Source: a virus. Taken from it: a stretch of 64,000 nt of DNA. Shown here one piece after another: positions 10,535 through 31,167 of this stretch. Each line of letters starts with the position of its first letter. The stretch's first letter is position 1. The position numbers and the translations under genes were made by a program. The stretch lies in IMG/VR virus record IMGVR_UViG_3300037502_002506, positions 2,324 through 66,323 of that record. One strand, 5' to 3'. The notes below the pieces were generated by a model. That model searched no databases. It was not told the DNA's origin and saw only the letters and a list, made by a program, of their open reading frames with translations.

Positions 10535-10563
10535 AGTCCTGAGCATGACTACTAAAACTGCTC
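10535..10563 (+). ncRNA. Conserved H-type pseudoknot element, copy 1
   Basis: AGTC-CTGAGCAT-GACT-ACTAAAAC-TGCTC. Confidence 0.7.
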
Positions 10564-10628
10564 ACTTGATTTCTAGCAGTAAAAATGCTAGACTATAAAT
10601 AACAACCCACTAAGAAAGGATAAAGTAA

Positions 10629-11048
10629 ATGGCACGACAGAAAGCAATTAGCGTGAAAATCGCTACAACTAAAGTCATCAAGGCTTTAGAAACAAAACTA
10701 GCACAAATCCAAAAGGATAAGGCTAGTCAGAAATCAAACGAGGAAAAGTTTGATAAGGCTCTAAAGGCTTACAACAAAGAGGTAGCAAAGTTAGCACTAG
10801 ATAAAATCTCTAAGGCAACTGACCTATCTGCTCACAAGAGATACAATGGAGAAGTCCAAGTATCCTTCGCTCTACCTGCTGGAACTATTGACCTACCTAC
10901 TGAACCTGAAAGAGAGTTTCAGAGTTTCCATGAGTGGCAATACAAGGAAATGATAGAGGAAATTGAGAACGCAATTCGTATTCTCAAGATGACAGATGAG
11001 GAAGTAGTTTCTACTTCTACTTACAACGCTATCGCTAGATACTTGTAA
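10629..11048 (+). CDS. Hypothetical coiled-coil protein
   Basis: AGAAAGGA SD, promoter. Confidence 0.75.
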   Translation: MARQKAISVKIATTKVIKALETKLAQIQKDKASQKSNEEKFDKALKAYNKEVAKLALDKISKATDLSAHKRYNGEVQVSFALPAGTIDLPTEPEREFQSFHEWQYKEMIEEIENAIRILKMTDEEVVSTSTYNAIARYL

Positions 11049-11052
11049 AATT

Positions 11053-11076
11053 GAGAGGGGTGTAAAAGCCCCTCTC
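11053..11076 (+). terminator. Hairpin after gene stop, possible terminator
   Basis: GAGAGGGG/CCCCTCTC stem; weak U-tract. Confidence 0.5.
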
Positions 11077-11125
11077 TCTATCCCCTGCGTTCCACGCTAT
11101 TTATAGCAAGTGTCCCCTGGGGATC

Positions 11126-11151
11126 GTCCTGAGCATGACACTAAACTGCTC
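11126..11151 (+). ncRNA. Pseudoknot element, copy 2
   Basis: GTC-CTGAGCAT-GAC-ACTAAAC-TGCTC. Confidence 0.7.
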
Positions 11152-11161
11152 CACCTCCAAC

Positions 11162-11191
11162 TTGACAAATGTCAGACCCCAATGCTAAACT
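11162..11191 (+). promoter_or_regulatory. Early promoter
   Basis: TTGACA-18-TAAACT with TGTCAG. Confidence 0.8.
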
Positions 11192-11217
11192 TAGTATTAG
11201 AAAGAAAGGAAACTAAA

Positions 11218-11490
11218 ATGATAGCAACCGCTATAGCACTACAACAAGCAACACAAGAAGCAGTTCATGATGAAATGACTATGGACATGGCTTCTCACTT
11301 ATTTCACGCAAGAAATGAAATGTCAGATAATGATTTCGCAAGAGCATTATTTGAATATTCTGCTCTGCTCTCATCACTAACAACAACTCTTGTAACCCAT
11401 GTATTATTGACAGAGGAACAAGTAAATGCTATGATTAGTGATATCAAAGAATTTGATGAACTTGGAAAGGATGTAACAAATGGAAACTAA
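11218..11490 (+). CDS. Hypothetical protein
   Basis: Start reassigned behind AGAAAGGA. Confidence 0.7.
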   Translation: MIATAIALQQATQEAVHDEMTMDMASHLFHARNEMSDNDFARALFEYSALLSSLTTTLVTHVLLTEEQVNAMISDIKEFDELGKDVTNGN

Positions 11491-11890
11491 TGTAATTCAT
11501 GCGACGGAGGAGTATCTTCGTAATCGAATCACAGAACTAGAGGAGCGAGTAAAGACTGTAGAAGAGTCTCATGCTCGTGTTGTACAGCGGGATTTTAGTA
11601 CATCTGCTGCACTGAATGCAATGTCAGAGTCGCTACGTGACTGGACCGTGGAGAACCTAGAAAATGGCTCTATCAATGATGAGCAGGCCTTGGAACTGGC
11701 GGAGATTGGTTCGTTTGAACTAACAAAAGAAGTAGAGGCTGAAGTCTCTGTAACTTACTACATAACATTGAATGTGCCTGCAGGAGAAAATGCTGAAGAC
11801 ATAATCAATGATATTGATTTCGACGCAATTGTATATGACACGGACCATGTTACACATGTTTCATCTAGTGTCGACAGTGTTGACATCTAA
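11480..11890 (+). CDS. Hypothetical acidic protein
   Basis: GAAAGGA SD, overlap with upstream gene. Confidence 0.7.
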   Translation: METNVIHATEEYLRNRITELEERVKTVEESHARVVQRDFSTSAALNAMSESLRDWTVENLENGSINDEQALELAEIGSFELTKEVEAEVSVTYYITLNVPAGENAEDIINDIDFDAIVYDTDHVTHVSSSVDSVDI

Positions 11891-11896
11891 ATAAAT

Positions 11897-11999
11897 TTGC
11901 GTGGTTCATGAAAGGCCACGCAATGTGCACGGATCTCTTCTTTCATCCTTTCTTTCAAAGAGACCGTGAGGGACCTGAGCACGTCCACGTAAACTGCTC
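11897..11999 (+). ncRNA. Candidate small RNA: hairpin + anti-SD hairpin + pseudoknot copy 3
   Basis: Stems 11897-11923 and 11928-11968 (loop CTTTCATCCTTTCTTTCA); GGAC-CTGAGCAC-GTCC-ACGTAAAC-TGCTC at 11971-11999. Confidence 0.65.
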
Positions 12000-12081
12000 A
12001 CCTCCAAAAAAGTGGTCGGCCCGTTTTGTCCTAAAATGTCCGATTTACGAAGTTACGATCAAAACGCCCGAATCCCAGGAT

Positions 12082-12110
12082 TTGCTTTTGTCAGACCGCT
12101 GTGCTAAACT
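12082..12110 (+). promoter_or_regulatory. Early promoter
   Basis: TTGCTT-17-TAAACT with TGTCAG. Confidence 0.75.
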
Positions 12111-12143
12111 TTAGATAATAAACAAAACAGAAAGGAATAAAAA

Positions 12144-13145
12144 ATGGCTCATGAATTAGAATCAGAAAAGTCATTCGCTAGTTTCCGTGAACCTGCTTGG
12201 CATGGTTTAGGAACCGTATTTACAGAGGAAGTTTCCACACGGGAAATGTTGTCTCTTGCTAATCTCCAGAATTGGAATGTTAGATTGGAAGATGTTGTGA
12301 TTCCAGAAAATCTCACATCAGATAAATCTTATCAGTATGTTGTGCGTACTAATCCGTTTGATAAAAATCAGACAGATGTTCTTGGTGTTGTAGGTGAGCG
12401 TTATGTTCCACTACAAAATGAAGACCTATTCACTTTTGGTGATGCGATTCTTGATGGCGGTGGTCGTTGGGAAACAGCAGGTTCTCTAAAAGGTGGTCGT
12501 GTAGTGTTTGGCTCTCTTGCGTTAGAGCGTGAGACAGTTCTTGACCCTAATGGCGTTGCTGATGTTGTCAAGACTTATCTTCTTGTCAATACATCACATG
12601 ACGGTTCAGTTGCTATTCAAGCAAGTGTGACCCCCGTTCGTGTTGTGTGTGCTAATACTCTTGCCGTTGCTCTTGGTAGAGGTAAGCGTGGTATAAAGCA
12701 ATCATTCAAGATTCGTCACACGCAATCTGCTGATGGTAAAGTTCAACAGGCTCGTGAGGCTCTAGGTGTTGCTAATGCATACATGGATGAGTTTTCTAAA
12801 ATGGCTCAGTTGATGATTCAAAAAGAAATCACAGCGCAACAGTTCAATGACATTGTTTTGCTTGCGTATCCAAAGCCTGATGAGACTAAGAAGGGTGCAT
12901 TGAAAAAGTGGGAAAATAAAATTGACACTATCAATGACATCTACACAGGTCAATTCAATGGCATGATTGCCAATACTGCTTGGGGTGCTTGGAATGCACT
13001 CACAGAAAGAATCGATTGGTATCGTGGAGGTAAGCGTGGTCTTACTGAATCAATCCTAATGGGTTCAAGTGGTTTTGACCCTGCTATCACAGCAGAAAAA
13101 AATCGTTTGCTACAAGTTGTGAATTCAACTTTAGAATTAGTATAA
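12144..13145 (+). CDS. DUF932 / phage-plasmid-like protein
   Basis: PAWHGLG, WETAGSL, SHDGS, TPVRVVCANT. Confidence 0.85.
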   Translation: MAHELESEKSFASFREPAWHGLGTVFTEEVSTREMLSLANLQNWNVRLEDVVIPENLTSDKSYQYVVRTNPFDKNQTDVLGVVGERYVPLQNEDLFTFGDAILDGGGRWETAGSLKGGRVVFGSLALERETVLDPNGVADVVKTYLLVNTSHDGSVAIQASVTPVRVVCANTLAVALGRGKRGIKQSFKIRHTQSADGKVQQAREALGVANAYMDEFSKMAQLMIQKEITAQQFNDIVLLAYPKPDETKKGALKKWENKIDTINDIYTGQFNGMIANTAWGAWNALTERIDWYRGGKRGLTESILMGSSGFDPAITAEKNRLLQVVNSTLELV

Positions 13146-13154
13146 ACTAATTCA

Positions 13155-13181
13155 ACTCCTGAGCATGAGTATAAACTGCTC
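13155..13181 (+). ncRNA. Pseudoknot element, copy 4
   Basis: ACTC-CTGAGCAT-GAGT-ATAAAC-TGCTC. Confidence 0.7.
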
Positions 13182-13348
13182 TATTTTTTATTTGACAAAA
13201 GATCAAAAAAGTGGCCGACTAAAAATATCATCAAAAACTTTTATTACGTAACCGACTAAAAATGTCATGAATTTTTTTCATTACGTACAACTTGCTTTTT
13301 CCCCTAGATTTTGGTAGAATAATAATAGAACCCATGAAAGGAAATATA

Positions 13349-13510
13349 ATGCTAGGATATACAACAGAGCAGGTAGAAAATATGGCTACTACTTTAAACT
13401 ATTCTATTCATCATCATATTAATAATACTGTATTTGCTGATGAGGATAAGAAGGTATTGAGAGATCTAGAGGATTTCTTATGGGGATTATTGGCAGAGGG
13501 ACGTGTTTGA
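13349..13510 (+). CDS. Small hypothetical protein
   Basis: GAAAGGA SD before MLGYT. Confidence 0.6.
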   Translation: MLGYTTEQVENMATTLNYSIHHHINNTVFADEDKKVLRDLEDFLWGLLAEGRV

Positions 13511-13564
13511 CATACCCTGCCTAATTTGCTAGAATAATACAAGAACCCACAGAAAGGACCCATA

Positions 13565-14311
13565 ATGCCAAATTGGTGTTACAACTATCTAACTATCGAG
13601 GGCAATGAGCAAGACATTGCTAAAGTTAAAGCACAACTTAACCAACCATTTACTAAAATGCATGATACATTCAATATGGAGACAGGTCAAATGGAGTTCA
13701 CAGAGACCTCATACTCTAACCCTGTATTTGCATTCCATAATATATATAATCACACACAGGCAGGTATATCTGATGAGGATTATATGAAGCAACCTGACCA
13801 TACCCTGCCAATTCAAGAGGCTATGATGTTTAAGGGTAATCATTGGTACGACTTTAATGTTCGTGAATGGGGAACCAAATGGGATGTGGCTGTCCGTGAC
13901 GGAGAAGACTATCCTGAAACTGAGTTAAATACAGAGGACGACTGGTCAACTAGTTTGACATATAGGTTTAATACAGCATGGTCACCCCCTGTTCCTGCTA
14001 TTGAGAAGTTATCTCTTCAATATCCTAATCTAGAATTTACCTTGTCTTATGAAGAAGAGACTGGGTGGGGTGGAGAAGTTCTATTCGTGGACGGAAGCGG
14101 AAGCGAAATAGAATCCTATGAAAACAAGTGTAGAGATTGTGATTCAGTCAATACATTACAGTATTGTGATAACGATTGTGGAGAAATCTGTGATTCTTGT
14201 CACTATCTAGGCGAGGCAGACCTAGAGTGTGTTGCAGAGTGTGATGAGCACAAGATATACTTAGACGACGAACACGTACCCAACTACAGAATGGACCAAC
14301 CAAATGTCTAA
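13565..14311 (+). CDS. DUF1281/YubB ferredoxin-like protein with Cys-rich tail
   Basis: MPNWC, WGTKWD, FNTAWSPP. Confidence 0.75.
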   Translation: MPNWCYNYLTIEGNEQDIAKVKAQLNQPFTKMHDTFNMETGQMEFTETSYSNPVFAFHNIYNHTQAGISDEDYMKQPDHTLPIQEAMMFKGNHWYDFNVREWGTKWDVAVRDGEDYPETELNTEDDWSTSLTYRFNTAWSPPVPAIEKLSLQYPNLEFTLSYEEETGWGGEVLFVDGSGSEIESYENKCRDCDSVNTLQYCDNDCGEICDSCHYLGEADLECVAECDEHKIYLDDEHVPNYRMDQPNV

Positions 14312-14510
14312 TTACTTATTAGAGTATATGAAGATACATCTGGTCTCTATTGAACAAGACCAATCAGACGTATCAGAACAAATGGAATCGCTTGACCCTA
14401 ACTCTAAAGACTATGCTGAGTTAGACTTTGAATATAACTGGTTGGCAGGTCAGATTATTGCTACCCGCCACTTTATACAGATTGGAGAAGAGCATGCAAA
14501 CAAACTTTAA
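14304..14510 (+). CDS. Hypothetical protein
   Basis: Overlapping operon ORF. Confidence 0.6.
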   Translation: MSNYLLEYMKIHLVSIEQDQSDVSEQMESLDPNSKDYAELDFEYNWLAGQIIATRHFIQIGEEHANKL

Positions 14511-14778: not shown

Positions 14779-14926
14779 TGGAGATCTTGATCGGACTATT
14801 TCTAGTATTAATGGTACTAGGAGCAGCAGCAGGAGGGTATACAAATGAGCCAAAACTATGAGCAGTTGACATTAGACCTACAATTTGATACACTAGAAGA
14901 AAACCCTACTACCGAAAGGACCCACC

Positions 14927-15283: not shown

Positions 15284-15347
15284 GAGGGTTGGGTCCCCTC
15301 CGTAATAACGGGGGCGTAGGTAGCACCTTTCTTCTACTTGCGCCCCC
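15283..15347 (+). ncRNA. Candidate small RNA: hairpin + anti-SD hairpin
   Basis: GGAGGG/CCCTCC stem, then 14-bp stem 15310-15347 with loop CACCTTTCTT. Confidence 0.5.
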
Positions 15348-15842: not shown

Positions 15843-15849
15843 AAAGCCC

Positions 15850-17543: not shown

Positions 17544-17619
17544 ACATATTGCTCGTTTAGAGCATAAGGGGTTTGTGTTTCTATTTTCCGCCGAACTTTA
17601 AATGGTGTATAATGTAATT

Positions 17620-18285
17620 ATGGATCCCATTTCGAAAGAAGAAGATACAAGTACTTATAATTTTGACGCTTTAAAATCAAATGTTCCGTTTATTGTAAAT
17701 GGACAGGTTGTAGGACAACACCCAGACTATTTCGATAGATCTGAAATCTATAAGCAAAATTTTGAAAAAATGGGTAGCGATTCAAAAAATATTAAAATTA
17801 TTAAAAATTTTATTTCTGAAAGAGAATGTAAAATATTAATACAGTATATAAATACTTTTGCAATACCAAAGGAATATCCAGTTAAATGGGATGAAAAACT
17901 TGAACCAATTGTTACAAGAAAATCATATGTAAATGTAGAACCTACATATAAATATGTTCCATTAGTACAAGATTTACTAGAAAAAGAATACGGATTTCCA
18001 GTAAAAAATAAAAATGTATTTGTCGGTAGATGGGACGTAGGGGATAATTTAGATTTACATGTAGATGATTTAGGCACAACCAGTACTAATCATATGGCAA
18101 CACTTATATATTTAAACAGTGATTATGAGGGGGGAGAGATTGAGTTTCCAACTCACAACATATCTCACAAGCCTCAAGCAGGAGATCTCATAATGTTTCC
18201 TGGCAATATGCACTATGCTCATGAGGTAAAAACCATTACATCTGGATCAAGATATAGTATTCCGATGTGGTTTGAGTTTGTATAA
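17620..18285 (+). CDS. 2OG-Fe(II) oxygenase, prolyl-4-hydroxylase-like
   Basis: HVD...YLNSDYEGGE...HEV...RYS. Confidence 0.85.
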   Translation: MDPISKEEDTSTYNFDALKSNVPFIVNGQVVGQHPDYFDRSEIYKQNFEKMGSDSKNIKIIKNFISERECKILIQYINTFAIPKEYPVKWDEKLEPIVTRKSYVNVEPTYKYVPLVQDLLEKEYGFPVKNKNVFVGRWDVGDNLDLHVDDLGTTSTNHMATLIYLNSDYEGGEIEFPTHNISHKPQAGDLIMFPGNMHYAHEVKTITSGSRYSIPMWFEFV

Positions 18286-19479: not shown

Positions 19480-19737
19480 TTGTCACAAGAAAATATTAAA
19501 AAAAGAAAGTTGTTGGATGGTTCTGAGGTTAATGATTATGACTATCCAATTGATTTAATTTTACATACTAAGGCTCCAGGTAAATGGAAAGTTATTGATC
19601 TTGAAACTGGGCAAGAATATTTGGGTTCTGAAATAACACATAGCACCTTTGGAGAGATTTTACGCACCAAAGTAAGTAATGGTAAAATAGGATCTTGGCT
19701 TAAAACTAAAAGGAGAGACGGATCTAATGTCGAATAA
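19480..19737 (+). CDS. Hypothetical protein
   Basis: ORF overlapping next gene. Confidence 0.6.
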   Translation: MSQENIKKRKLLDGSEVNDYDYPIDLILHTKAPGKWKVIDLETGQEYLGSEITHSTFGEILRTKVSNGKIGSWLKTKRRDGSNVE

Positions 19738-21181
19738 ACCAATAACCTTCCACTGGATGTGGAGGAGACACTGGCAGATAAGTGACAGTATCGAAAACCT
19801 AGACCTTGATGGAATTCTACGTATGGCACAAGAATTAGATGGTGCAAACGTTAAGTCCGTTTTACTTCCATATGGTCCAGGTGGTATTGATTTTTCTTTA
19901 GTTATAAAAGACGCATTAGAAAAAACAAATCAATTAATTATGACAATTGCTTTACCTGCATATGGAACAAGTCCTGACTATGCTGCTAAAATTTTAGAAA
20001 CATTAAATCGTTTTGCTCCTGGAAGAATTGGAGTAAACCTTGTTGCTGGAAGATGGGGAGATGAAGGAAACAGCACTGCAGAAAAATTAGTAATAGATCA
20101 TTATATGCATGACTCTTCACTTATTGATACCCTTGCAAAAAGGGTGGCAATATCAGAAGTTTGGATGGATAAGGTTATGGCATTAATGGAAAAACATCAG
20201 CATAAAACACATATGGCTGTTGTTGGTTCCTCAGACACAACAATCAGGATAGCAAACAAGCATTGCGAATACATATACGTAGATGATAATCTGTTACGTA
20301 ATCCTGAGCAGTACGCAAAAATAACTAATTCAAAGCCAATCCTTATTGTAGATCCGCTAATAATTGAAAAGCCTGAAGACGTAGACAATGTTATCTATGA
20401 CGAGAATGCTCCGCCAAGAAAACAATTTCATCATATAATTGGAACACATGATGAGGTTGTTTCTGCAATTAAAGGTATTGCAGAAAAATTTAATATTTAT
20501 GATTTTATGATACATACAGATCAAAAAGATATTAGCAAATTGTTAAAACTAGTAAAGGAATTTGATAAAGTGCAACCTAACAACAATGATATGGAACATT
20601 TTGATATATCGAATGATGACAGAAGGCCTGAAGGATCTACAATTCATCATGAGGTTTTTGAAAAATTAGGATCTAAGCCAGATAATTTAAAAGTCTTTAC
20701 TAATTTTATTTCTCCAGAACAATGCAGCGCTATTATAGAAAGCATAAAAAATTCAGAGCCATCGTCTGAAAAACCAGTTCAGTTTAGCCCTGATGGGAAT
20801 CCCCTGACTTTTAGAAAAGACTGGGATATAAATCCGTACATAGATACATACAATGACATTGTTCGTGGTGTTATTGAGGCAGAATATCCAGTTAGAGTAA
20901 AAAGCAGAAGTGCAAAAATTGCAGAGTGGACAAAGAATGATGTTTATGATTTACACATTAATGATCTAGGGATAAATGATTTTAATAATATGTCTGTCAC
21001 TATATATCTTAATGATGATTTTGAAGGCGGAGAATATTATTTTCCCACTCAAAATAAAATCTTTAAACCAAAGGCTGGAGATTTAATTATTTTTCCAGGG
21101 AACATGCACTATAATCACATTATAAGCAAAGTTACTTCTGGATCAAGATATACTATTCCCTTATGGTATACCTTTATTTAA
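19727..21181 (+). CDS. Luciferase-like monooxygenase domain fused to 2OG-Fe(II) oxygenase
   Basis: N-term GRIGVNLVAG LLM-like; C-term HIND, YLNDDFEGGE, HII, RYT. Confidence 0.65.
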   Translation: MSNKPITFHWMWRRHWQISDSIENLDLDGILRMAQELDGANVKSVLLPYGPGGIDFSLVIKDALEKTNQLIMTIALPAYGTSPDYAAKILETLNRFAPGRIGVNLVAGRWGDEGNSTAEKLVIDHYMHDSSLIDTLAKRVAISEVWMDKVMALMEKHQHKTHMAVVGSSDTTIRIANKHCEYIYVDDNLLRNPEQYAKITNSKPILIVDPLIIEKPEDVDNVIYDENAPPRKQFHHIIGTHDEVVSAIKGIAEKFNIYDFMIHTDQKDISKLLKLVKEFDKVQPNNNDMEHFDISNDDRRPEGSTIHHEVFEKLGSKPDNLKVFTNFISPEQCSAIIESIKNSEPSSEKPVQFSPDGNPLTFRKDWDINPYIDTYNDIVRGVIEAEYPVRVKSRSAKIAEWTKNDVYDLHINDLGINDFNNMSVTIYLNDDFEGGEYYFPTQNKIFKPKAGDLIIFPGNMHYNHIISKVTSGSRYTIPLWYTFI

Positions 21182-22100: not shown

Positions 22101-22649
22101 ATGATTTATCACAAGCACTTATTGGTTAATGCTAAAGTAAAGAATCCAATAAATACAGAAGAAGAGGGAATTAATTTCCTTCGCAATTTAGTCGAAAAGA
22201 TCGACATGAAGATTATTAAGGGTCCATTTGCATCCTATGTGGATAAAGATGGCAATAAGGGTCTAACAGGAATTGTAATGATTGAGACCAGCCATATTGC
22301 TTTTCACATATGGGATGAAGTAGACCCAGGATTAATTCAATTTGATTTATATACTTGTGGTCAACTAGAATTCAATAAAGTTATTAATATCTTCAAAGAA
22401 ACATTTAATGTTGTTGAATTTGATTATGTATTATTTGATCGTGAAAATGGATTTGTTGTAGAACAAAGCGGTCGGGAAGCCGATGGAGTTCAATACAACC
22501 AATACCCTGACGGCAAAACAGTCCCAAAAGAAATGCTAAATCCAAATATTGGAGGGTGGTTAAAACCAAAAAATCATCAAGATGATACAGACTTTGACCC
22601 TTCAATCATAGAAGAAATATGGGGTAAAAAAATAGGAAAAAATAAATAG
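22101..22649 (+). CDS. speD: S-adenosylmethionine decarboxylase proenzyme
   Basis: GLTGIVMIETSHIAFHIWDE...DLYTCG. Confidence 0.8.
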   Translation: MIYHKHLLVNAKVKNPINTEEEGINFLRNLVEKIDMKIIKGPFASYVDKDGNKGLTGIVMIETSHIAFHIWDEVDPGLIQFDLYTCGQLEFNKVINIFKETFNVVEFDYVLFDRENGFVVEQSGREADGVQYNQYPDGKTVPKEMLNPNIGGWLKPKNHQDDTDFDPSIIEEIWGKKIGKNK

Positions 22650-23971: not shown

Positions 23972-24045
23972 GGAGCAGTAGCCAAGTTGGTCAAGGCCCC
24001 GAACTCATAATTCGGCTATCGTAGGTTCAAGTCCTACCTGCTCTA
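23972..24045 (+). tRNA. tRNA with CAT anticodon (elongator Met or Ile2)
   Basis: GGAGCAG/CTGCTCT acceptor, CCGAA-CTCATAA-TTCGG, TTCAAGT loop. Confidence 0.9.
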
Positions 24046-24048
24046 CAA

Positions 24049-24206
24049 GGTCTATCCAGAATTCGACTCAGGATAGATACAACTGCCCCGAAACTTTCGC
24101 AGGTGGAAGTCGTTAGATAACCCAGTCGAATGGGCCTAAGCAGACAGCATCTAGGGAGCAGAGCCAGTGGTTATATTCGCCGTAGAAACGGGTAGCGTGA
24201 CTGGCA
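24049..24206 (+). ncRNA. Candidate structured RNA with kissing loop
   Basis: Five predicted stems; loop TTCGAC complementary to loop GTCGAA. Confidence 0.6.
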
Positions 24207-24225
24207 CTTATAATTGCGTAGTTTA

Positions 24226-24298
24226 GCCCTTGTAGCCCAGTGGTAGAGGCACACGACTTAAAATCGTGACAGCGTTGGTTCGAATCCAACCAGGGGCA
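24226..24298 (+). tRNA. tRNA-Leu(TAA), short variable loop
   Basis: GCCCTTG/CAGGGGC, CACGA-CTTAAAA-TCGTG, TTCGAAT. Confidence 0.85.
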
Positions 24299-24326
24299 CG
24301 ATGGTATACTTGATGTGGAGGAATAA

Positions 24327-25085
24327 ATGATTATACAAATTATTGGGCTGCCTGGTTCTGGCAAGACAGCACTTGCACAGGCACTTAAAGAAAGAATTAA
24401 TGCTATTCATCTTAATGCAGATGAAGTTAGATCAACGGTAAACTCCGATCTAGGATTTAGCAATGAAGATAGAATTGAGCAAGCAAGAAGAATGGGAGAA
24501 ATGGCTAGGCTTATTGCCAAGCAAAATGTTGCCCCTGTCATTGTTGATTTTGTTTGTCCAACTGAAGAAGCGAGAGAGGCATTTGGTTTTGCAGATTTAG
24601 TGGTATGGGTTGATAGAATTAAGCAGGGCAGATTTGAAGATACCAATAAACTTTGGGCAGACCCTTGGCATTTTCATATAAGAATTCTTGATGGTTATAC
24701 TATAGAAGAAGAGGTTAATACTGTAATTCAAACTGGATCATTATTTGACTGGTCTGCTCCAACTACTTTGCAACTTGGAAGATATCAACCTTGGCACGAA
24801 GGGCATCAGGCTTTAAAAGAAGAAGCCCATAAGAGAACACCACAGGTTCTTGTCGGTGTTCGTAATACCTATAAAACATCTGAAAAGGATCCATTGAAAT
24901 ATGACGAGGTGTCCGAATTTATTAAGCAGGATAATCCATTTAAAGATACGTTAGTATTACGACTACCCAATATTACCAATGTTGTTTATGGTCGTGATGT
25001 AGGATATAAGATTGAACAAGTAAAGTTAGGAGAAGACATTGAGTCTATTAGTGCTACTCAAAAGCGTAAAGAAATGGGTATTTGA
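24327..25085 (+). CDS. Adenylyl-sulfate kinase-like domain fused to HxGH nucleotidyltransferase
   Basis: GLPGSGKT, ADEVR...DLGFS..DR; GRYQPWHEGH. Confidence 0.75.
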   Translation: MIIQIIGLPGSGKTALAQALKERINAIHLNADEVRSTVNSDLGFSNEDRIEQARRMGEMARLIAKQNVAPVIVDFVCPTEEAREAFGFADLVVWVDRIKQGRFEDTNKLWADPWHFHIRILDGYTIEEEVNTVIQTGSLFDWSAPTTLQLGRYQPWHEGHQALKEEAHKRTPQVLVGVRNTYKTSEKDPLKYDEVSEFIKQDNPFKDTLVLRLPNITNVVYGRDVGYKIEQVKLGEDIESISATQKRKEMGI

Positions 25086-25150
25086 TAATTCAAGTAATTC
25101 CTGGGCAGATAAAGAAGCAGAATTATTTATTAACTTTAAAGAAAAAATAG

Positions 25151-25354
25151 ATGAGAGTAACGAAGAGTAGATCGTTTGCTAAAGCCTGGAGTTATAGAGT
25201 ATTTGGCACCTTGACTTCTTTTCTTGTTGTGTATATAATTACTGGAGAGGCTGTTTTGGCTACCGCTATTGCATTTTGGGAAACCGTATTAAAAATAGGT
25301 GTATATTATTGGCACGAAAGAATATGGGACAAAATACAGTGGGGTAGAAAATAA
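25151..25354 (+). CDS. DUF2061 membrane protein
   Basis: RSFAKAWSYR...YYWHERIW. Confidence 0.8.
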   Translation: MRVTKSRSFAKAWSYRVFGTLTSFLVVYIITGEAVLATAIAFWETVLKIGVYYWHERIWDKIQWGRK

Positions 25355-25357
25355 AAT

Positions 25358-25429
25358 ACCTCTGTAACTCAGCGGAAGAGTAGCGGACTTCTAATCCGTT
25401 TGTCGCAGGTTCGATTCCTGCCAGGGGCA
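25358..25429 (+). tRNA. tRNA-Arg(TCT)
   Basis: GCGGA-CTTCTAA-TCCGT; TTCGATT; A1:C72 mismatch. Confidence 0.85.
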
Positions 25430-25445
25430 CTACAATTAAATACTT

Positions 25446-25521
25446 TGGTCTGTAGTTCAGTTGGTAGAACACTCGACTGTTAATCGAGATGTCGCAGGAT
25501 CGAGACCTGCCAGACCAGCCA
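25446..25521 (+). tRNA. tRNA-Asn(GTT)
   Basis: TGGTCTG/CAGACCA, CTCGA-CTGTTAA-TCGAG, encoded CCA. Confidence 0.9.
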
Positions 25522-25546
25522 TGATACAATTTAGTGTGGAGTTAAT

Positions 25547-27151
25547 ATGTCAATAAACAAAATAGTAATTGTTGGCGGTGGATCTGCTGGATGGATGTCA
25601 GCAGCAACACTAATAAAAGCATTTCCAGATAAAGACATAAGTGTAATAGAATCTAAACATGTTCCAATTATAGGTGTTGGAGAGTCTACATTGGGTCAGA
25701 TTAAACGCTGGACAGATTTTATAGGATTACAAGATAAAGATTTTTTAAAGGCTACAGATGCTACATATAAATTAAGCATAAAATTTACTGATTTTTATAA
25801 AAAAGATTCTGGCGGATTTCATTATCCATTTGGAACCCCAATGGTATATAAAAATAGAAATCCATTTTACGATTGGCATATTAAAAAATATATATCTCCA
25901 GAGACACCAGTTACAGATTTTGTAGAATGTTTATTTCCAGCAGCAGCATTATTTGCAAAAAATAAATACTCTGAAAATCTTAATAATGAGTTCGATAATT
26001 TTGATACTAAGAGGGCTGTTGCATATCATTTTAATGCTGTTAAGTTTGGGCAGTGGCTTAAGGATTTTGTATGTTTGCCAAATGGAGTAAAACATATTGA
26101 AGCAACTGTTACTAATGTTATTAAAGATGATGAGGCAGGAATTAAATATCTTGAATTAGATAATAACGAAATTGTTAATGCAGATTTGTTTGTAGATTGC
26201 ACAGGCTTTAAAAGTCTGTTACTTGGTGAAACTTTAAATGAACCATATATTTCTTTTCAACATTTAATTCCAAATAACGGTGCTTGGGCTGCACAGGTGC
26301 CGTACAAGGATAAAGAAAAAGAAATGGAATCCTATACAAACTGTACAGCCCTTGGAAATGGATGGTGCTGGAATACCCCACTATATTCTAGATTAGGAAC
26401 TGGATATGTCCATTCAACAAAATTTATTACAAAAGAACAGGCGCTAGATGAGTTTAAGCAATACCTAATGTCAGATAAAATGATAATTCCTAGAACTAAA
26501 GAAGAAGTCGAAGATTTAAAGTTTAGATACATTGACATGAAAATTGGTATTCACGAGAGAACATTTGTAAAAAATGTAGTAGCAATAGGAATGGCTGCTG
26601 GTTTTATTGAGCCACTAGAATCTAACGGCTTATATACAGTACATGAATTTTTGTTTAAGTTAATAGATATATTACAAAGAGATAATATAAGTCAGTTTGA
26701 TCGAAACATGTATAATCAATCAACTAAGTCTATATATCAAGGATTTGCTAAATTTGTATCCTTACATTATTTATTGTCTCACAGAGATGATACAGAATAT
26801 TGGAGAAGCATTAAAAATGGAACCACAATAGATGTGGAAAATGAAATGCTAACTTCTTTATTTGATAAAGAAGATCCTTTTAATGATTTAGTTCAAAGAT
26901 ATATGACAAAACAGGAGCACCCTTTCGGTCCTGCTGGAATAACATACATAGCCACTGGAATGAACTTAAACATGATGAATATTGCTAGGGCAAAAGCGGA
27001 TTACTTTGGAACAGGAATACCGCTAGGACATTCGGCCTTTCAATTTAATTCAATCTGGGAAGAAAGAAAGCAAAAATGGAAGAATAATGCAATTAATGCA
27101 CCGTCCTTATATGAGTATTTAAAAAATAATTATTTTGACGGAGAAGAATAA
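25547..27151 (+). CDS. Tryptophan-halogenase family flavin-dependent enzyme (PrnA/RebH-like)
   Basis: GGGSAG, GVGEST, TYKLSIKF lysine, WCWNTP, FIEPLESNG. Confidence 0.85.
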   Translation: MSINKIVIVGGGSAGWMSAATLIKAFPDKDISVIESKHVPIIGVGESTLGQIKRWTDFIGLQDKDFLKATDATYKLSIKFTDFYKKDSGGFHYPFGTPMVYKNRNPFYDWHIKKYISPETPVTDFVECLFPAAALFAKNKYSENLNNEFDNFDTKRAVAYHFNAVKFGQWLKDFVCLPNGVKHIEATVTNVIKDDEAGIKYLELDNNEIVNADLFVDCTGFKSLLLGETLNEPYISFQHLIPNNGAWAAQVPYKDKEKEMESYTNCTALGNGWCWNTPLYSRLGTGYVHSTKFITKEQALDEFKQYLMSDKMIIPRTKEEVEDLKFRYIDMKIGIHERTFVKNVVAIGMAAGFIEPLESNGLYTVHEFLFKLIDILQRDNISQFDRNMYNQSTKSIYQGFAKFVSLHYLLSHRDDTEYWRSIKNGTTIDVENEMLTSLFDKEDPFNDLVQRYMTKQEHPFGPAGITYIATGMNLNMMNIARAKADYFGTGIPLGHSAFQFNSIWEERKQKWKNNAINAPSLYEYLKNNYFDGEE

Positions 27152-27173
27152 GTATGATAGTATATTTATTGTT

Positions 27174-27247
27174 GGTCCGTTAGTTCAGTTGGTTAGAACG
27201 CTACCCTGTCACGGTAGAGGTCGTCGGTTCAAGTCCGATACGGATCG
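27174..27247 (+). tRNA. tRNA-Asp(GTC)
   Basis: GGTCCGT/ACGGATC, CTACC-CTGTCAC-GGTAG. Confidence 0.9.
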
Positions 27248-27287
27248 CTAGAGCCTGGTGTATCCGTTATTGGTGTATAATGATTGT

Positions 27288-27857
27288 ATGCAACAAAATA
27301 ATTATTTGGTAAATGAGTGTGTCCCTCACCTACTTACATATAATAGAAGTGGGATGCATTTTTTTGATGATAATCTATATGAAATAGAAAAAATTCATTT
27401 TACTCAATCACACCTTATAGAACAACTATTTGATGAAAACAACAATAAGAAAAGAGTGATAGTAACAATAGCAAGAGAGCCGACTGGAAGTATTCCTTCT
27501 TATATAGCACATCTTGGTAATTATTATTTAGAAAATGCTATCGATTTTGGAATTAGAGAAAAAATAACAGAGTATATACTAATGTATTCTTTCTTATGTG
27601 AACATGCAGACTATGTCATAGATTTTAATGATCTCATAAAATATCCAAAAATTGTAATTAAAAAATTATTAGAGTTATTAAATATAGATAAAGATAAATA
27701 TGTTTATTTTGAAAGAGACATTATACCTAGAAGTGAACACTATATTCCATCAAGCAAGTCGTTACCAAACTATAAAGAAAATCTGTTAGATGGCTATAAT
27801 CTTGATTTATGTTATTATTACTATCATAAACTTTTAGAAAAGAAAATTATAATTTAG
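27288..27857 (+). CDS. Sulfotransferase-like protein
   Basis: TYNRSGMHF, IAREP; paralog of 18289 and 29210. Confidence 0.5.
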   Translation: MQQNNYLVNECVPHLLTYNRSGMHFFDDNLYEIEKIHFTQSHLIEQLFDENNNKKRVIVTIAREPTGSIPSYIAHLGNYYLENAIDFGIREKITEYILMYSFLCEHADYVIDFNDLIKYPKIVIKKLLELLNIDKDKYVYFERDIIPRSEHYIPSSKSLPNYKENLLDGYNLDLCYYYYHKLLEKKIII

Positions 27858-27920
27858 TTTTATTTGTAACTTTACAAAACTACTGAATCAATGTATAATG
27901 GTAATATGTCTACCAATCAT

Positions 27921-27995
27921 GGCACTATCGTCTATCGGATAGGACATCGCCCTTTCACGGCGGAAAGACGGGTTCGATTCCCGTTAGTGCTACCA
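27921..27995 (+). tRNA. tRNA-Glu(TTC)
   Basis: GGCACTA/TAGTGCT, TCGCC-CTTTCAC-GGCGG, encoded CCA. Confidence 0.9.
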
Positions 27996-28036
27996 GTTTG
28001 GTATAATAGAATGACTACTAGTAGAAAGAAGAGCAA

Positions 28037-28606
28037 ATGAGAACTATCGGAGATAAGTTAGAGCCGTTTCGTATCATTGGAGTAAAACCAGGTAGACTGG
28101 ATGCTTCTGATGATGTATTTGAAGTATTGGATGAAAAATCATTTCCAGGAAAATGGAAGGTAATTGTATATTATCCAAAGGATTTTACATTTGTATGCCC
28201 GACAGAAATTGTGGCATATGATAAATTAGTTAACGATTTTAATGATCGTGACGCAGTATTGTTAACAGGATCAACAGATAACGAGTTCTGTAAAATTGCA
28301 TGGCGTAACGCACATGAAGATTTAAAAAAGACTAATTCTTGGTCTTTTGCAGATCAAATTCGTGAATGGTCTTGGGCAGAAGATGAAGGCTATACTGGAC
28401 TTGCAAACCAATTAGGGATCTTAAATAAAGATGGTGTTGCACTTCGTGCTACCTTTATTGTTGATCCAGATAATGTTATTCAACATGTAACTGTAAATAA
28501 TCTTAATGTAGGTCGTAGTCCAGAAGAAACTCTTCGTGTACTTGATGCCTTGCAAACAGGAGAACTTTGTGCCTGCAATAGAAGCCTTGGTGGAGAAACA
28601 CTGTGA
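28037..28606 (+). CDS. ahpC: Peroxiredoxin AhpC
   Basis: YPKDFTFVCPTE, GELCACN. Confidence 0.92.
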   Translation: MRTIGDKLEPFRIIGVKPGRLDASDDVFEVLDEKSFPGKWKVIVYYPKDFTFVCPTEIVAYDKLVNDFNDRDAVLLTGSTDNEFCKIAWRNAHEDLKKTNSWSFADQIREWSWAEDEGYTGLANQLGILNKDGVALRATFIVDPDNVIQHVTVNNLNVGRSPEETLRVLDALQTGELCACNRSLGGETL

Positions 28607-29115
28607 GTTGGGTAGATGAAGTAAAGGAACTTGTTCCTGAGTATGCTAAAGACATTAAGTTAAATCTTGATGCTGTGATCAATAGAAGTACTTTTGATTA
28701 CGATTACTCTTCATCCCTTGCACTTGCAGCAGCCCTTGCAACAGGTAATCAGGACATTGTCGCTATGGTTTCTGATGGTGTTACAGATGAGGTAGAAAAA
28801 AATGCAGCCTTTACAGCAGCAGCCTTGATGGCACAGAACAATGTATGGTATCCATATACTGAGATGGCAGATGATCCAAATCTAACTGGATTACCAGCAC
28901 AACTTAGAATGAATGCTATTGCATCTCATGGCGGTACAACTAAGGCGAAGTTTGAGTCGTATGCGCTTATTGCATCTATTATTGGAAAATGTCATTTCTG
29001 TGTAAAGGCTCATTATGAAACCTTAAAACAAGAAGGATATACAACTGAACAACTTCGTGATATCGGAAGAATTGCTGCAACAATTAATGCTATCGCCAAG
29101 GTTGTCGTAGCGTAA
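28603..29115 (+). CDS. ahpD: Alkyl hydroperoxide reductase AhpD
   Basis: PEYAKDIKLNL, MAQNNVWY, CHFC; overlaps ahpC. Confidence 0.9.
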   Translation: MSWVDEVKELVPEYAKDIKLNLDAVINRSTFDYDYSSSLALAAALATGNQDIVAMVSDGVTDEVEKNAAFTAAALMAQNNVWYPYTEMADDPNLTGLPAQLRMNAIASHGGTTKAKFESYALIASIIGKCHFCVKAHYETLKQEGYTTEQLRDIGRIAATINAIAKVVVA

Positions 29116-29120
29116 TGGTT

Positions 29121-29192
29121 GCCTCCTTAACTCAGGGGTAGAGTACTCGCCTTGTAAGCGAGATGTCGTAGGTTCAAATCCTACAGGAGGCT
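29121..29192 (+). tRNA. tRNA-Thr(TGT)
   Basis: GCCTCCT/AGGAGGC, CTCGC-CTTGTAA-GCGAG. Confidence 0.9.
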
Positions 29193-29209
29193 CTGATATG
29201 ATTAACAAT

Positions 29210-29809
29210 ATGAGTAAAGAGATACATCTTATTACATATCCTAGATGTGGATCAACTTATCTTTCTAAATTATTAAGTGACAGTTTTCAAAAAGAAATTT
29301 ATAGAAGACATCTTAATGGAACAAAGAAGATGGATCCCGAATATAGTAAAGATAACGATTATTATAATGATGCAGGATCAAAATCTTTTAAAGAAAACAA
29401 TTATGCAATTACCGTATTAAGAAATCCTGTAGACTCTATCTCATCTTTATGTTCTATGGAAAATTTTTATAATAAAAATATTGATATTGATTTTAATATT
29501 AAACAATATACTGAATATTATATTTATTTTTTTAAAGATATTTTAAAAATTGTAGATTTAATGATAGATTTTAATGATATCAATATACATAAAGATAATA
29601 TTTTAAAATATGTAGGTGATAAAACTAATAATAGTATTATAAATAAAAATTATTCACCAGATATATCAGATCTTTCAGATCATCAATTTTTAAAATCTTC
29701 TAAAATAAATAAAAACTATGAATGCATTAAAGAAAAGGTTAAAAATAATGACTTAACTGAATGCTTTAACGTTTATAATAGTTTGATAACAGAATGCAAA
29801 AAATTTTAA
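29210..29809 (+). CDS. Sulfotransferase-like protein
   Basis: TYPRCGSTYL, VLRNP. Confidence 0.55.
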   Translation: MSKEIHLITYPRCGSTYLSKLLSDSFQKEIYRRHLNGTKKMDPEYSKDNDYYNDAGSKSFKENNYAITVLRNPVDSISSLCSMENFYNKNIDIDFNIKQYTEYYIYFFKDILKIVDLMIDFNDINIHKDNILKYVGDKTNNSIINKNYSPDISDLSDHQFLKSSKINKNYECIKEKVKNNDLTECFNVYNSLITECKKF

Positions 29810-29821
29810 ATAGTTTAAAAA

Positions 29822-29962
29822 CTATTTTTTATCTTTGTTATACTCGCCGTATTTTCCAAGAACAGCCTTTACAGTACCATCTTTACGAAGACGAACGATC
29901 ATTCCATCTTTAATTTGTATAGGGTTAAACTTATCGTGTCTTTTAAATTTACCAGATGACAT
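29822..29962 (-). CDS. Small basic protein (46 aa)
   Basis: MSSGKFKRHDKFNP...; TAATG coupling. Confidence 0.55.
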   Translation of the reverse strand: MSSGKFKRHDKFNPIQIKDGMIVRLRKDGTVKAVLGKYGEYNKDKK

Positions 29963-30243
29963 TATTTTTGCTTTCTTTCAAAGGCAGAGCCTTCCCAAAA
30001 TATCTTTTCTACTGGTATACAATTAGGAACCATTTTTCCATCTTGTTCTTTCATTCCTCTTTGTACGTATCCTTCCCAGCATGGGTTATCAGCCTTTATA
30101 TTGCCCTCAGAGCGGTTTATAGCATAGATCTGTGCTGCAGCCTCAGAACGAGTCTTATGGCATCCCATAACCTCTCCTGTGTCCTTCATAGCGGGGTATC
30201 CAGAGCATCCTCCAGAACCTTTAGCACCTACATGATACGGCAT
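29962..30243 (-). CDS. Hypothetical protein
   Basis: CWEGY...VPNC motif; leaderless-type start. Confidence 0.65.
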   Translation of the reverse strand: MPYHVGAKGSGGCSGYPAMKDTGEVMGCHKTRSEAAAQIYAINRSEGNIKADNPCWEGYVQRGMKEQDGKMVPNCIPVEKIFWEGSAFERKQK

Positions 30244-30282
30244 AATAAATAGTATACCATATTCTTATGGTAAAATAGATAT

Positions 30283-30462
30283 ATGGAACAAACACTGACA
30301 TCAGAGCAACAGGCAGAAATTCTTATTAATAAAATTATGCAAATAACAAAAGATAGGATTGTATCTATACTACAGCCAGAGTTTGATAAAATATCGGATG
30401 GACACTATCATTTTGATAAAGCACTAGCAGATGCTATTATTACTGATATTAAAAATGCTTAA
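30283..30462 (+). CDS. Small hypothetical protein (59 aa)
   Basis: ATG 6 nt after TGGTAAAAT. Confidence 0.5.
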   Translation: MEQTLTSEQQAEILINKIMQITKDRIVSILQPEFDKISDGHYHFDKALADAIITDIKNA

Positions 30463-31135
30463 AAAAATAATACAACCTTTAGGATATGATCAAGAAGTTT
30501 TATTCAAAACTAATGAAATTGAAAAGGCAATTCCTATATCCCAAAATCAATTAAACGATGCAAAACTCTTTACTTCAAAATATGAGTACGCAAAAACTTT
30601 AAATAAAAATATATCTTATTTAGAGATTGGAGTTGGTTGGGGATACTCTGCTCAAATGTTTATAGATACAACTAATGCTAAAAGTGCTGACCTTGTAGAT
30701 GTTTATAATAATTGCGACGGTGTTGTTGCAGCGGGAGGACCTGCGCCCAAAGATAGTTTACTAACACATGAGGAGTATATAAAGTCTAAATTTTCTTATC
30801 ATCCTAATGTTAATATTATAAAAGGAGACGCAAGAGACATAGCACCTACCTTAAATAAAAAATATGATTTAATATTATTAGATATGGAAAGAGAAAGATT
30901 TTTTATAAGAAATCTTTTATCAATTTGTTCCAAAATAACTAATGTAGATGGAATTATAGGATTAACCTCTTATATAATTTATGATGGTATTTTTTATAAT
31001 GAGTTGCGCCATGAGCAAGTAGGCGTATTTCAAAGTGTAAATGAATTTTTACACTTAAATAAAAATTGGTCTGTTGATGCTATGGTGTTAAATGATCTTG
31101 GGTATCATGACATATATATTAAAAGAAAATCATAA
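30455..31135 (+). CDS. Class I SAM-dependent methyltransferase
   Basis: LEIGVGWGYS, KGDA, YDLILLD. Confidence 0.75.
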   Translation: MLKKIIQPLGYDQEVLFKTNEIEKAIPISQNQLNDAKLFTSKYEYAKTLNKNISYLEIGVGWGYSAQMFIDTTNAKSADLVDVYNNCDGVVAAGGPAPKDSLLTHEEYIKSKFSYHPNVNIIKGDARDIAPTLNKKYDLILLDMERERFFIRNLLSICSKITNVDGIIGLTSYIIYDGIFYNELRHEQVGVFQSVNEFLHLNKNWSVDAMVLNDLGYHDIYIKRKS

Positions 31136-31140
31136 TAAAA

Positions 31141-31167
31141 GAGCAGTTTAGCCACATGCTCAGGTGG
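31141..31167 (-). ncRNA. Pseudoknot element, copy 5
   Basis: CCAC-CTGAGCAT-GTGG-CTAAAC-TGCTC, 8 nt after Hsp20 stop. Confidence 0.7.

Follow-up and report, generated by a model that had tools for sequence, protein, structure and literature searches.

The virus record IMGVR_UViG_3300037502_002506 from IMG/VR was analysed nearly whole, as a single stretch of 64,000 nucleotides (nt) (positions 2,324 to 66,323 of 66,323 bases; the window below), and the subject of this report is a short element that occurs in it five times, each time after the stop codon of a gene. The element had been predicted from the letters alone to be an H-type RNA pseudoknot, with a first stem (P1) and a second helix (P2) formed between the loop of P1 and a downstream segment. 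We scanned both strands of the window with the pattern CTGAGCAYN{4,12}AAACTGCTC and found exactly five matches, four on the plus strand and one on the minus strand (Table 1), against none for the full pattern in 100 dinucleotide-preserving shuffles of the window. Each half of the motif by itself occurred at a chance-level frequency. A covariance model trained on copies from outside the window returned the same five copies only, with scores of 39.5 to 46.5 bits, and the runner-up in the 64 kb scored 10 bits. Thus, the predicted locations of the five copies held, as did their P1 stems, of which that of copy 2 has only 3 base pairs (bp), the outer C.A being unpaired.

Table 1. Coordinates of the pseudoknot copies and other features of the window (P1 in DNA letters)
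Feature	Position	Strand	Pattern match	Covariance model (bits)	P1	Details
Pseudoknot copy 1	10535..10563	+	10539-10563	46.5	AGTC/GACT, 10535-10538 with 10547-10550	loop CUGAGCAU 10539-10546; P2 5' strand GAGCA 10541-10545; linker ACUAAAAC 10551-10558; P2 3' strand UGCUC 10559-10563
Pseudoknot copy 2	11125..11151	+	11129-11151	41.0	GTC/GAC	P2 3' strand 11147-11151
Pseudoknot copy 3	11971..11999	+	11975-11999	39.5	GGAC/GTCC	loop CUGAGCAC; linker ACGUAAAC
Pseudoknot copy 4	13155..13181	+	13159-13181	44.8	ACTC/GAGT	3' tail UAUUUUUUAUUU, U-rich
Pseudoknot copy 5	31141..31167	-	31141-31163	43.5	CCAC/GTGG	3' tail UUUUAUUAU, U-rich
ORF, 85 aa	10259..10516	+				stop precedes copy 1
ORF, 139 aa	10629..11048	+				flanked by copies 1 and 2
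Strong hairpin	~11053-11076					between the 139-aa ORF and copy 2
Promoter-like TTGACA-18-TAAACT	11162-11191					3' of copy 2
ORF, 136 aa	11480..11890	+				stop precedes copy 3
Strong hairpin	~11898-11922					between the 136-aa ORF and copy 3
DUF932-family gene	12144..13145	+				stop precedes copy 4
Seven tRNA genes	23972-29192					among protein genes
Convergent methyltransferase-like gene	30431..31135	+				ends 5 nt from the end of copy 5
hsp20 gene	31176..31595	-				own consensus sigma-70-type promoter 31680-31652
Auxiliary metabolic genes	17602-18282, 19727-21178, 34300-36191, 41790-42551, 25547-27148, 40284-41702, 22101-22646					listed jointly

As had been claimed, all copies lie on the sense strand 3' of a stop codon. 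The gaps are 18 nt for copy 1, after an open reading frame (ORF) of 85 amino acids (aa) that has no match in the family scans, and 76 nt for copy 2, after a 139-aa ORF with no family match and no homologue in the phage collection searched. Copy 3 begins 80 nt past the stop of a 136-aa ORF and copy 4 begins 9 nt past that of a DUF932-family gene. For copy 5 the position was read directly, and the distance of 8 nt from the hsp20 stop was as predicted; no same-strand gene follows it, and it is the sole structure in the 40-nt gap 3' of hsp20. Four of the copies had also been said to follow another hairpin. Strong hairpins do precede copies 2 and 3, and a hairpin across the stop codon precedes copy 4, but copy 1 has only a weak hairpin that overlaps P1.

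Two covarying helices

The element is 27 to 30 nt long, with the consensus N4-CUGAGCAH-N4'-N(1-8)AAAC-UGCUC-A. P1 has 4 bp and is free in sequence while its pairing is kept, and P2, in which GAGCA pairs with UGCUC, is nearly fixed and covaries when altered. The first loop, C(U), is 1 to 2 nt long and crosses P2, one nucleotide forms the junction, and an A-rich linker, NNAAAC, crosses P1. Approximately 18 of the 27 positions are strictly conserved, with loop, P2 and linker fixed and P1 free.

The exact-pattern scan of IMG/VR took the motif beyond one phage, to at least 131 loci, which together with the window gave 143 unique copies among the matches listed (the listed copies below). The linker has an identical length in 107 of these 143 copies, and 136 have at least 3 contiguous P1 pairs. 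Since chance would give any linker length and no stem, these are not chance matches. In prokaryote genome contigs, by contrast, the pattern was mostly due to chance: linker lengths were scattered, and only 18 of 121 matches had 4 or more P1 pairs. Those 18, which lie in assemblies of many phyla, are plausibly phage DNA. Outside the 27 to 30 nt of the knot, the listed copies share no conserved position except for the A/U-rich, G-poor bases on the 3' side.

All four pairs of P1 covary. Counted from the loop outwards in the 143 listed copies, without filtering, pair 1 is CG in 133, GC in 2 and UA in 1; pair 2 is UA in 71, AU in 50, CG in 16 and GC in 3; pair 3 is GC in 57, CG in 31, AU in 29 and UA in 20; and pair 4 is AU in 48, CG in 33, UA in 14, GC in 11 and G.U in 12. 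The covariation score, calculated from the 128 listed copies with at least 3 P1 pairs, was reached by none of 500 shuffles.

P2 cannot be judged from these copies because the pattern fixes it by construction, and two variant searches were therefore made. One applied a fixed-spacing pattern with up to 2 mismatches to 49 viral records that have a canonical copy, and it gave 82 places, compared with 0 for a reversed-pattern control. Among the 21 places with a double mismatch, 8 were compensatory in P2 (four G:C to A:U, two A:U to G:C, one G:C to A:U at the third pair and one C:G to U:A) and 1 was a swap of the P1 closing pair. The other double-mismatch places were 5 with a G.U wobble plus a change of the junction base and 7 of a recurrent subtype ending AAAAGGCUC. 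The other search used a model with P2 treated as unpaired, so that compensation was not favoured, and gave 118 matches in 47 of the same 49 records and 100 matches in a set of 28 stretches. These 100 matches yielded 93 unique parsable copies, in which pair 1 is GC in 83, AU in 5, GU in 3 and other in 2; pair 2 is AU in 87, GC in 4, GU in 1 and other in 1; pair 3 is GC in 90, GU in 2 and AU in 1; pair 4 is CG in 81, UG in 10, UA in 1 and CA in 1; and pair 5 is AU in 82 and AG in 11. P2 cells were paired in 94.8% of cases, compared with 23 to 42% when the partner was slid. Two-sided changes were present at 4 of the 5 core pairs, with a score attained by 0 of 500 shuffles, in counts that do not represent independent events, as the records were chosen for a canonical copy and many are mutually related. 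A sixth pair is possible in 69 of the 93 copies, between the U before GAGCA and the A after UGCUC. The GAGCA loop sequence had been called invariant, which is correct for the window; elsewhere it changes jointly with its partner.

The AG pairs belong to the subtype ending AAAAGGCUC instead of AAACUGCUC, which accounts for 11 of the 93 copies in several records (e.g., L338 4040-4071 and L322 2554-2585). In this subtype the innermost P2 A-U is replaced by A.G and the last linker base changes from C to A. The junction accepts all four bases (62 U, 20 A, 10 C and 1 G among the 93 copies). At one locus (L324 4042-4088; record G021, 34541-34587) a hairpin has been inserted there and separates the 5' strand of P2 from the 3' strand of P1, which indicates that the junction tolerates large insertions. 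Taken singly the helices are weak, with calculated stabilities of -0.9 to -5.2 kcal/mol for P1 and -4.5 to -5.0 kcal/mol for P2.

The element is a minimal H-type pseudoknot of RNA rather than a DNA site, since both helices covary, G.U wobbles sit on the sense strand and the strand of the motif tracks that of the local genes. The 93 copies contain 16 G.U pairs in P2 on the sense strand versus 1 C.A, which is what a G.U pair of the other strand would look like. Five of five copies that are opposite in strand to the main cluster of their genome still match the local gene strand, and so does copy 5 of the window, on the minus strand after hsp20, while the other four lie among plus-strand genes. 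The original prediction had preferred an RNA fold to a DNA operator on the basis of P1 alone, and P2 now gives the same answer.

Occurrence in phages and position at gene ends

The motif is broadly distributed across many unrelated phages. A BLAST search of cultured phages with one 33-base copy, followed by reading of the sequences as a check, found it in Mycobacterium phage Labelle, Arthrobacter phage Molivia, Paracoccus phage ParMal1 (Autographiviridae), Synechococcus phage S-EIVl (5 copies, all on the same strand), cyanophage S-RIM4 (Kyanoviridae), Vibrio phage D456 and Lentibacter phage ICBM2, as well as in two Heliusvirales phages recovered from human faeces. These carriers span T4-like, T7-like and long-tailed phages, and their hosts span Actinomycetota, Cyanobacteria, Alphaproteobacteria and Gammaproteobacteria. 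Genomes have 1 to 8 copies, clustered in one region. The closest cultured relatives of the window phage by its DnaE-like polymerase (approximately 55% identity) are Streptomyces phages, of which BillNye, Bmoc and Faust were scanned and had no copy at 3 or fewer mismatches.

The orientation of the copies relative to genes is not random. With a crude gene caller applied to 86 copies in 21 stretches, and with 18 copies inside an overlapping called ORF set aside, the upstream gene was on the same strand in 65 of 68 copies, and two of the three exceptions were gene-calling errors, in which a same-strand ORF ends 9 and 12 nt upstream. The distance to the stop codon was measured on the oriented sequence from the last stop base to the first base of the 4-bp P1, for 136 copies with an upstream open frame of at least 45 codons, which form 92 clusters by upstream coding sequence. 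The onset at 5 nt is abrupt: a single cluster each lies at 0 and 4 nt, so that only 2 of 92 loci are closer than 5 nt, followed by 20 clusters at 5 nt, 11 at 6 nt, 5 each at 7, 8, 9 and 10 nt, 2 at 11 nt and 37 (approximately 40% of loci) at 14 nt or more. In 40 of the 143 listed copies P1 can be extended by 1 to 3 more pairs, which moves the structure nearer to the stop. The ribosomal mRNA tunnel keeps approximately 5 nt past the A-site codon single-stranded, and thus the knot sits as near to the stop as it can without being unwound by the terminating ribosome. After dereplication to the 92 clusters there was no 3-nt phase in the distance; a preference for one codon phase that was apparent at first vanished at this step. 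The upstream stop codons are TAA in 55, TAG in 15 and TGA in 4 cases, with no bias at the next base.

The upstream ORF is the only constant neighbour of the knot, and what lies downstream is varied. By a strict criterion, 47 of 173 copies have a ribosome-binding site and start codon within 9 to 35 nt on the 3' side, and a same-strand tRNA, of seven isotypes in all, follows after 3 to 14 nt in 13 of the 143 listed copies. Several relatives of the window phage have the order DUF932 gene, knot, tRNA-Asp. In two Heliusvirales phages a DUF2800 RNA begins on the same strand 1 nt past the knot (L352 727-884, 144 bits; L353 727-883, 124 bits), and the small minus-strand coding sequences (CDSs) annotated over it are probably spurious. 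In Lentibacter phage ICBM2 (L291 1180-1497) the annotated glutaredoxin CDS starts 5' of the knot and includes it; translation probably begins instead at one of the ATGs approximately 20 to 35 nt on the 3' side of the knot. Record G033 (L334 1755-1927; 65252-65426) has three tandem knots in approximately 170 nt directly after one ORF, the second with the canonical single junction base and the third with a 4-nt junction. In one IMG/VR contig (L068 418-490) a borderline Rfam match to tmRNA (47.3 bits versus a cut-off of 47) lies approximately 95 nt 3' of the knot.

The 9 nt after the knot are A/U-rich with 4 to 10% G, and the first of them is A in 99 of the 143 listed copies. At least 6 of the first 10 nt are T in only 31 of 141 copies, and T-richness did not differ between copies with a distant and those with a tightly linked next gene. 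When the 50 nt beyond each of the 143 listed copies were searched strictly for perfect-stem terminators, none was found, and a few imperfect ones were seen by eye. Ordinary hairpins or terminators stand beside some copies, namely copies 2 and 3 of the window, L121 and, as judged by eye, L186, L223 and L235.

Promoter-like sites lie 2 to 12 nt after several copies, as found by a scan and partly by eye. One conserved promoter-like pair, TTGATT-17 nt-TAGACT, starts 2 to 3 nt after copy 1 and its homologues (window 10564-10600; L043, L088, L039 and L166); it was overlooked by the consensus promoter scan because only 8 of 12 positions match. Sequences resembling DnaA boxes (consensus TTATCCACA), sometimes paired, lie 30 to 50 nt after the knot in L004, L005, L017, L060 and L112, and the homologous stretch of the window (12000-12060, 5' of the DUF932 gene) shares the flanks and has no perfect DnaA box. 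Copy 5, read on both strands (31141-31180), has an A-rich 5' flank and a U-rich 3' flank and may be a two-way terminator, since with the A-rich flank the plus-strand transcript of the convergent methyltransferase-like gene would also finish in the P1 hairpin and a U-rich run. None of the seven tRNA genes of the window is preceded by a knot. The window also holds six paralogous 2OG-Fe(II) oxygenase-like genes, a tryptophan halogenase-like gene, a carbamoyltransferase and an S-adenosylmethionine (SAM) decarboxylase-like gene, an auxiliary metabolic gene set that is unusually rich for this 66-kb lake phage.

The RNA data consisted of Logan assembled contigs from four metatranscriptome runs; such contigs reveal no RNA ends, strand or levels, and stretches that they leave uncovered are uninformative. 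A contig from an RNA library spans copy 1 (10505-10620), which cannot prove transcription. The highest contig depth was over the 139-aa ORF (3351 in the bin 10840-11023 of run X18). Depth in run X18 went from 49 to 7.5 to 0 over copy 4, a weak hint given that these are contigs only, and there was no such fall at copy 1. Depth also fell between the genes flanking copy 2, where a strong hairpin and relatives without a 2.1-kb segment confound the reading. Contigs in two of the runs join 11052 to 13156 with 3 other letters between, and thus relatives in those samples are without the 2.1 kb that hold three or four genes. The joint is at the 5' edge of copy 4, and knots may be break points for cassette exchange.

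Comparison with known families and systems

The original prediction had not recognised a named family in the motif, and Rfam 15 agrees with this. At the gathering threshold the whole window gave 7 tRNAs only, and at E values up to 10 the stretch 10400-13400 gave 4 chance-level matches, one of which, to wcaG, touches the start of copy 3 with 16.2 bits versus a cut-off of 42. Nine loci of named phages and 20 IMG/VR loci gave tRNAs, DUF2800 RNA and the borderline tmRNA beside the knot and none on it, plus two further chance-level matches (E values of 0.02 to 0.08) away from it. Literature searches by sequence and by topic gave no description of the motif, and nothing relevant in the literature on the transcriptome of mycobacteriophage Patience. 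The motif is a new RNA family of a known structural kind and lies outside Rfam, although a catalogue of 8,495 candidate structured RNAs from IMG/VR (PMC10690425), available to us in part, may include it. Its notable features are the breadth of hosts and the positional rule.

Two kinds of RNA structure come close to the knot in setting or in form. REP elements and operon stabiliser stem-loops also stand just after a cistron in read-through transcripts and are thought to shield the upstream segment, the role proposed below for the knot; they are plain, mostly G+C-rich and free in sequence, whereas the phage knot is weak and conserved across host phyla. The autoregulatory pseudoknot of T4 and T2 gene 32 is likewise an H-type knot in a phage mRNA, has a one-nucleotide loop and serves as a protein recognition site, but it lies in the 5' leader of a single gene, whereas the present motif follows many ORFs and has another sequence. 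The gene 32 pseudoknot is also mentioned in the available part of PMC10690425. DUF2800 RNA (RF02960), which adjoins the knot on the same strand in the two faecal phages, is a separate 158-nt structure; the knot is outside its Rfam model and mostly occurs without it.

Several further candidates were rejected. The boxA/boxB elements of nut and rrn sites (boxA core GCUCUUUA) have only UGCUC in common with the knot, in which UGCUC is base-paired and the next base is mostly A. A type III toxin-antitoxin RNA does not fit copies that are dispersed, one per gene end, with the single tandem triple in G033, and neither the PHROG scan, of 71 of the approximately 119 window ORFs, nor the Pfam scan, of 12 of them, gave a ToxN-like match. 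A ligand of ribosomal protein S1 is not indicated either, since pseudoknots selected in vitro (SELEX) for S1 have GGA and ACA loop motifs in the available part of that report (PMC1702504) and the present knot has neither. For sigma-70, sigma-54 or phage-polymerase promoters the hexamer spacing does not fit, and both the covariation and the 5-nt rule argue against them. An N4-type hairpin promoter was discarded as no gene for a giant virion polymerase is present in the window, where the largest ORF encodes a 1091-aa DnaE-like polymerase.

Possible roles of the knot

Every role discussed here is a prediction. The reading that we favour, tentatively and as a possibility rather than the expected outcome, sees the knot as a cis-acting mark of cistron ends in phage messages, which would protect or define the upstream 3' end in read-through transcripts. 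We favour it because the upstream ORF is the only constant neighbour, because the knot can be folded during translation and because it often stands where a true terminator is impossible; copy 5, which sits between convergent genes, can serve only its upstream gene. A stem that begins 5 nt or more past the stop would never be unwound by the terminating ribosome, and the knot would stay folded on translated mRNA. A transcript that continues into a gene, a tRNA or a structured RNA could not use a true terminator. If RNase P cleaves it at a downstream tRNA, or if endonucleases do so in the G-poor, A/U-rich stretch past the knot, the knot would become a structured 3' boundary that would shield the upstream cistron from 3'-to-5' decay and preserve its stop codon. 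Because the helices are weak and yet approximately 18 of 27 positions are conserved across several host phyla, its action would most likely depend on a precise tertiary fold, on recognition by a conserved host factor, or on the two together. At copies with a U-rich tail, such as copies 4 and 5, the same fold could additionally end transcription.

Several points weigh against a cistron-end mark. The RNA data are assembled contigs, which show neither ends nor strand. Helices as weak as these would be a poor passive block to exonucleases, and the hairpins or terminators adjacent to some copies make protection look redundant. A plain hairpin would suffice as a barrier, and a barrier role alone leaves the strict conservation unexplained. 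The peak at 5 to 6 nt could reflect genome compaction together with ribosome clearance, which would fit any RNA-level function. Finally, the motif is not a general gene-end signal, because only 5 of approximately 119 window ORFs carry it. The 3'-end device of the original prediction fares similarly: the position fits it, but the helices are weak, only about one-fifth of the copies have a U-rich tail, and many copies need read-through.

A bolder reading, which we consider unlikely, makes the knot a universal phage gene-end signal that is read by the bacterial translation or RNA-decay machinery and decides the fate of the message or ribosome after termination. In that reading a knot 5 nt past the stop would dock where the mRNA enters the terminating ribosome, or would attach to some other universally conserved factor; as a result the ribosome would be retained or re-used, or the message would become immune to decay.

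The main alternative, somewhat unlikely but more plausible than the universal signal, makes the knot foremost an operator to which a conserved trans-acting factor binds, whether a ribosomal subunit or protein, a universal RNA-binding protein or a widespread phage protein, which would exert a common post-transcriptional control such as capture and re-use of ribosomes after termination, timed shut-off or sequestering of the factor. Such a site would account for the strict loop, P2 and linker beside a free P1, for the marginal stability, for the clustering of 1 to 8 copies per genome with three in 170 nt in G033, and for the coexistence with ordinary hairpins; the commonest spacing of 5 nt also puts the knot at the mRNA entrance of a ribosome on the stop codon. 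However, the 139-aa ORF between copies 1 and 2 was rejected as a partner protein for want of a homologue in the phage collection, a protein shared by T4-like, T7-like and long-tailed phages of several host phyla is unlikely, and the approximately 40% of loci that lie 14 nt or more from the stop show that contact with the terminating ribosome is not required. A leaky terminator or attenuator, in which P2 closing on a pre-formed P1 would mimic a terminator hairpin and fix how strongly the upstream part is expressed relative to the downstream part, is distinctly unlikely. P1 and P2 when stacked amount to approximately 10 bp that end right at an A/U-rich, G-poor stretch, copies 4 and 5 have U-rich tails, copy 5 with its A-rich 5' flank is the sole structure between convergent genes, promoter-like sites directly follow several copies, and contig depth falls after copy 4 and between the genes flanking copy 2. 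The motif nevertheless does not have the form of an intrinsic (Rho-independent) terminator, a G+C-rich hairpin with a U tract directly behind it, given the weak helices and the small share of copies with U-rich tails. T-richness bears no relation to linkage of the next gene, tRNAs and ribosome-binding sites that begin 3 to 30 nt past the knot require read-through and leave a promoter no space, and the fall at copy 2 is confounded as described above. We regard as very unlikely an RNA processing site, either a tiny self-cleaving ribozyme or an element recognised by a universal endonuclease such as RNase P, that would separate cistrons and free downstream tRNAs or structured RNAs. The positions at ORF-tRNA boundaries or beside DUF2800 RNA are in its favour, together with a sequence conserved whatever the host, a topology that resembles the pseudoknotted acceptor arms of tRNA-like structures and the frequent A after P2. 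No self-cleaving class (hammerhead, twister, pistol, hatchet or hepatitis delta virus [HDV]-like) was matched in Rfam, though, nothing is conserved beyond the 27 to 30 nt, and we know of no self-cleaving class that small. A tRNA-like acceptor arm was likewise rejected, since ACCA follows only 7 of the 143 listed copies and coding sequence 5 to 10 nt upstream leaves no T-arm-like hairpin.

Three other explanations are less probable still. A ligand-sensing pseudoknot, with a ligand at the helix junction stabilising the fold, is highly improbable even though the preQ1-I aptamer is alike in its small hairpin with a short P1, in the pairing of its loop to a 3' segment beyond an A-rich tail, and in being marginally stable. 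The knot differs from that aptamer in having a loop of only 8 nt with a 5-bp P2 and no obvious pocket; the preQ1 models of Rfam, including preQ1-I (RF00522), gave no match even at E values up to 10, the junction base varies and in L324 takes an inserted hairpin, and the knots are found 3' of varied ORFs, ahead of tRNAs and where convergent genes end, rather than in leaders of queuosine genes or other metabolic regulons. The chance is slighter again that the knot is a translational recoding signal acting on the ribosome at the upstream stop, as the luteovirus frameshift and murine leukaemia virus read-through knots do. Luteovirus-type -1 frameshift knots, such as that of beet western yellows virus, are minimal H-type structures of approximately 28 nt located 5 to 8 nt past the A-site codon, and they share with the phage knot a first loop of 1 to 2 nt with a C, one junction nucleotide and an A-rich last loop along the first stem. 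The spacing is right as well: recoding knots of the H type lie 5 to 9 nt past the codon, which is where the commonest spacers fall, and the stop-to-P1 distance is 5 to 11 nt in 53 of the 92 loci. The phage motif, in contrast, occurs in DNA phages in several copies per genome, follows a stop, has a weak and A/U-tolerant first stem and is without a slippery site or overlapping frame. A -1 frameshift or read-through signal was rejected on these grounds: no upstream position is conserved, which excludes a slippery heptamer, the stops are ordinary with no bias at the following base, there is no 3-nt phase, the next few bases already lead into tRNAs or into separate genes that have ribosome-binding sites of their own, and approximately 40% of copies are too far from the stop. 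A DNA-level element, be it an oriented operator, a hairpin promoter or a recombination site that marks cassettes, is the least credible of all. Mycobacteriophage stoperators and T4-type promoter-stem-loop (PeSL) cassettes are similarly short, intergenic, transcription-oriented repeats, often by promoters or cassette edges, and the contig joining 11052 to 13156 implies relatives that differ by a cassette bounded at a copy. Those elements, however, are read as DNA sites or as plain terminator hairpins, while the phage knot is a covarying two-helix RNA; two-sided compensation in both helices and G.U wobbles on the sense strand led us to reject a stoperator-type operator, the sharp 5-nt limit after stops has no rationale at the DNA level, the carriers differ widely in transcription machinery, and cassette exchange at repeated 27-nt sequences can be a by-product.

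The knot already has a practical use as a marker of gene strand and gene ends in phage annotation, and in several records annotated CDSs overlap the motif or oppose its strand. If confirmed, it would be among the smallest and most widely distributed structured RNA motifs of tailed phages, yet one absent from Rfam, and its placement 5 nt or more after stops provides a simple, testable rule that connects an RNA fold with the footprint of a ribosome at termination. A universal gene-end signal, if true, would be a class of cis element 3' of ORFs not described in bacteria, spread across at least four host phyla. Overall, if a partner or an activity is found, the knot could represent a new layer of phage gene expression and could supply synthetic biology with a 27-nt, host-independent part for operon design.

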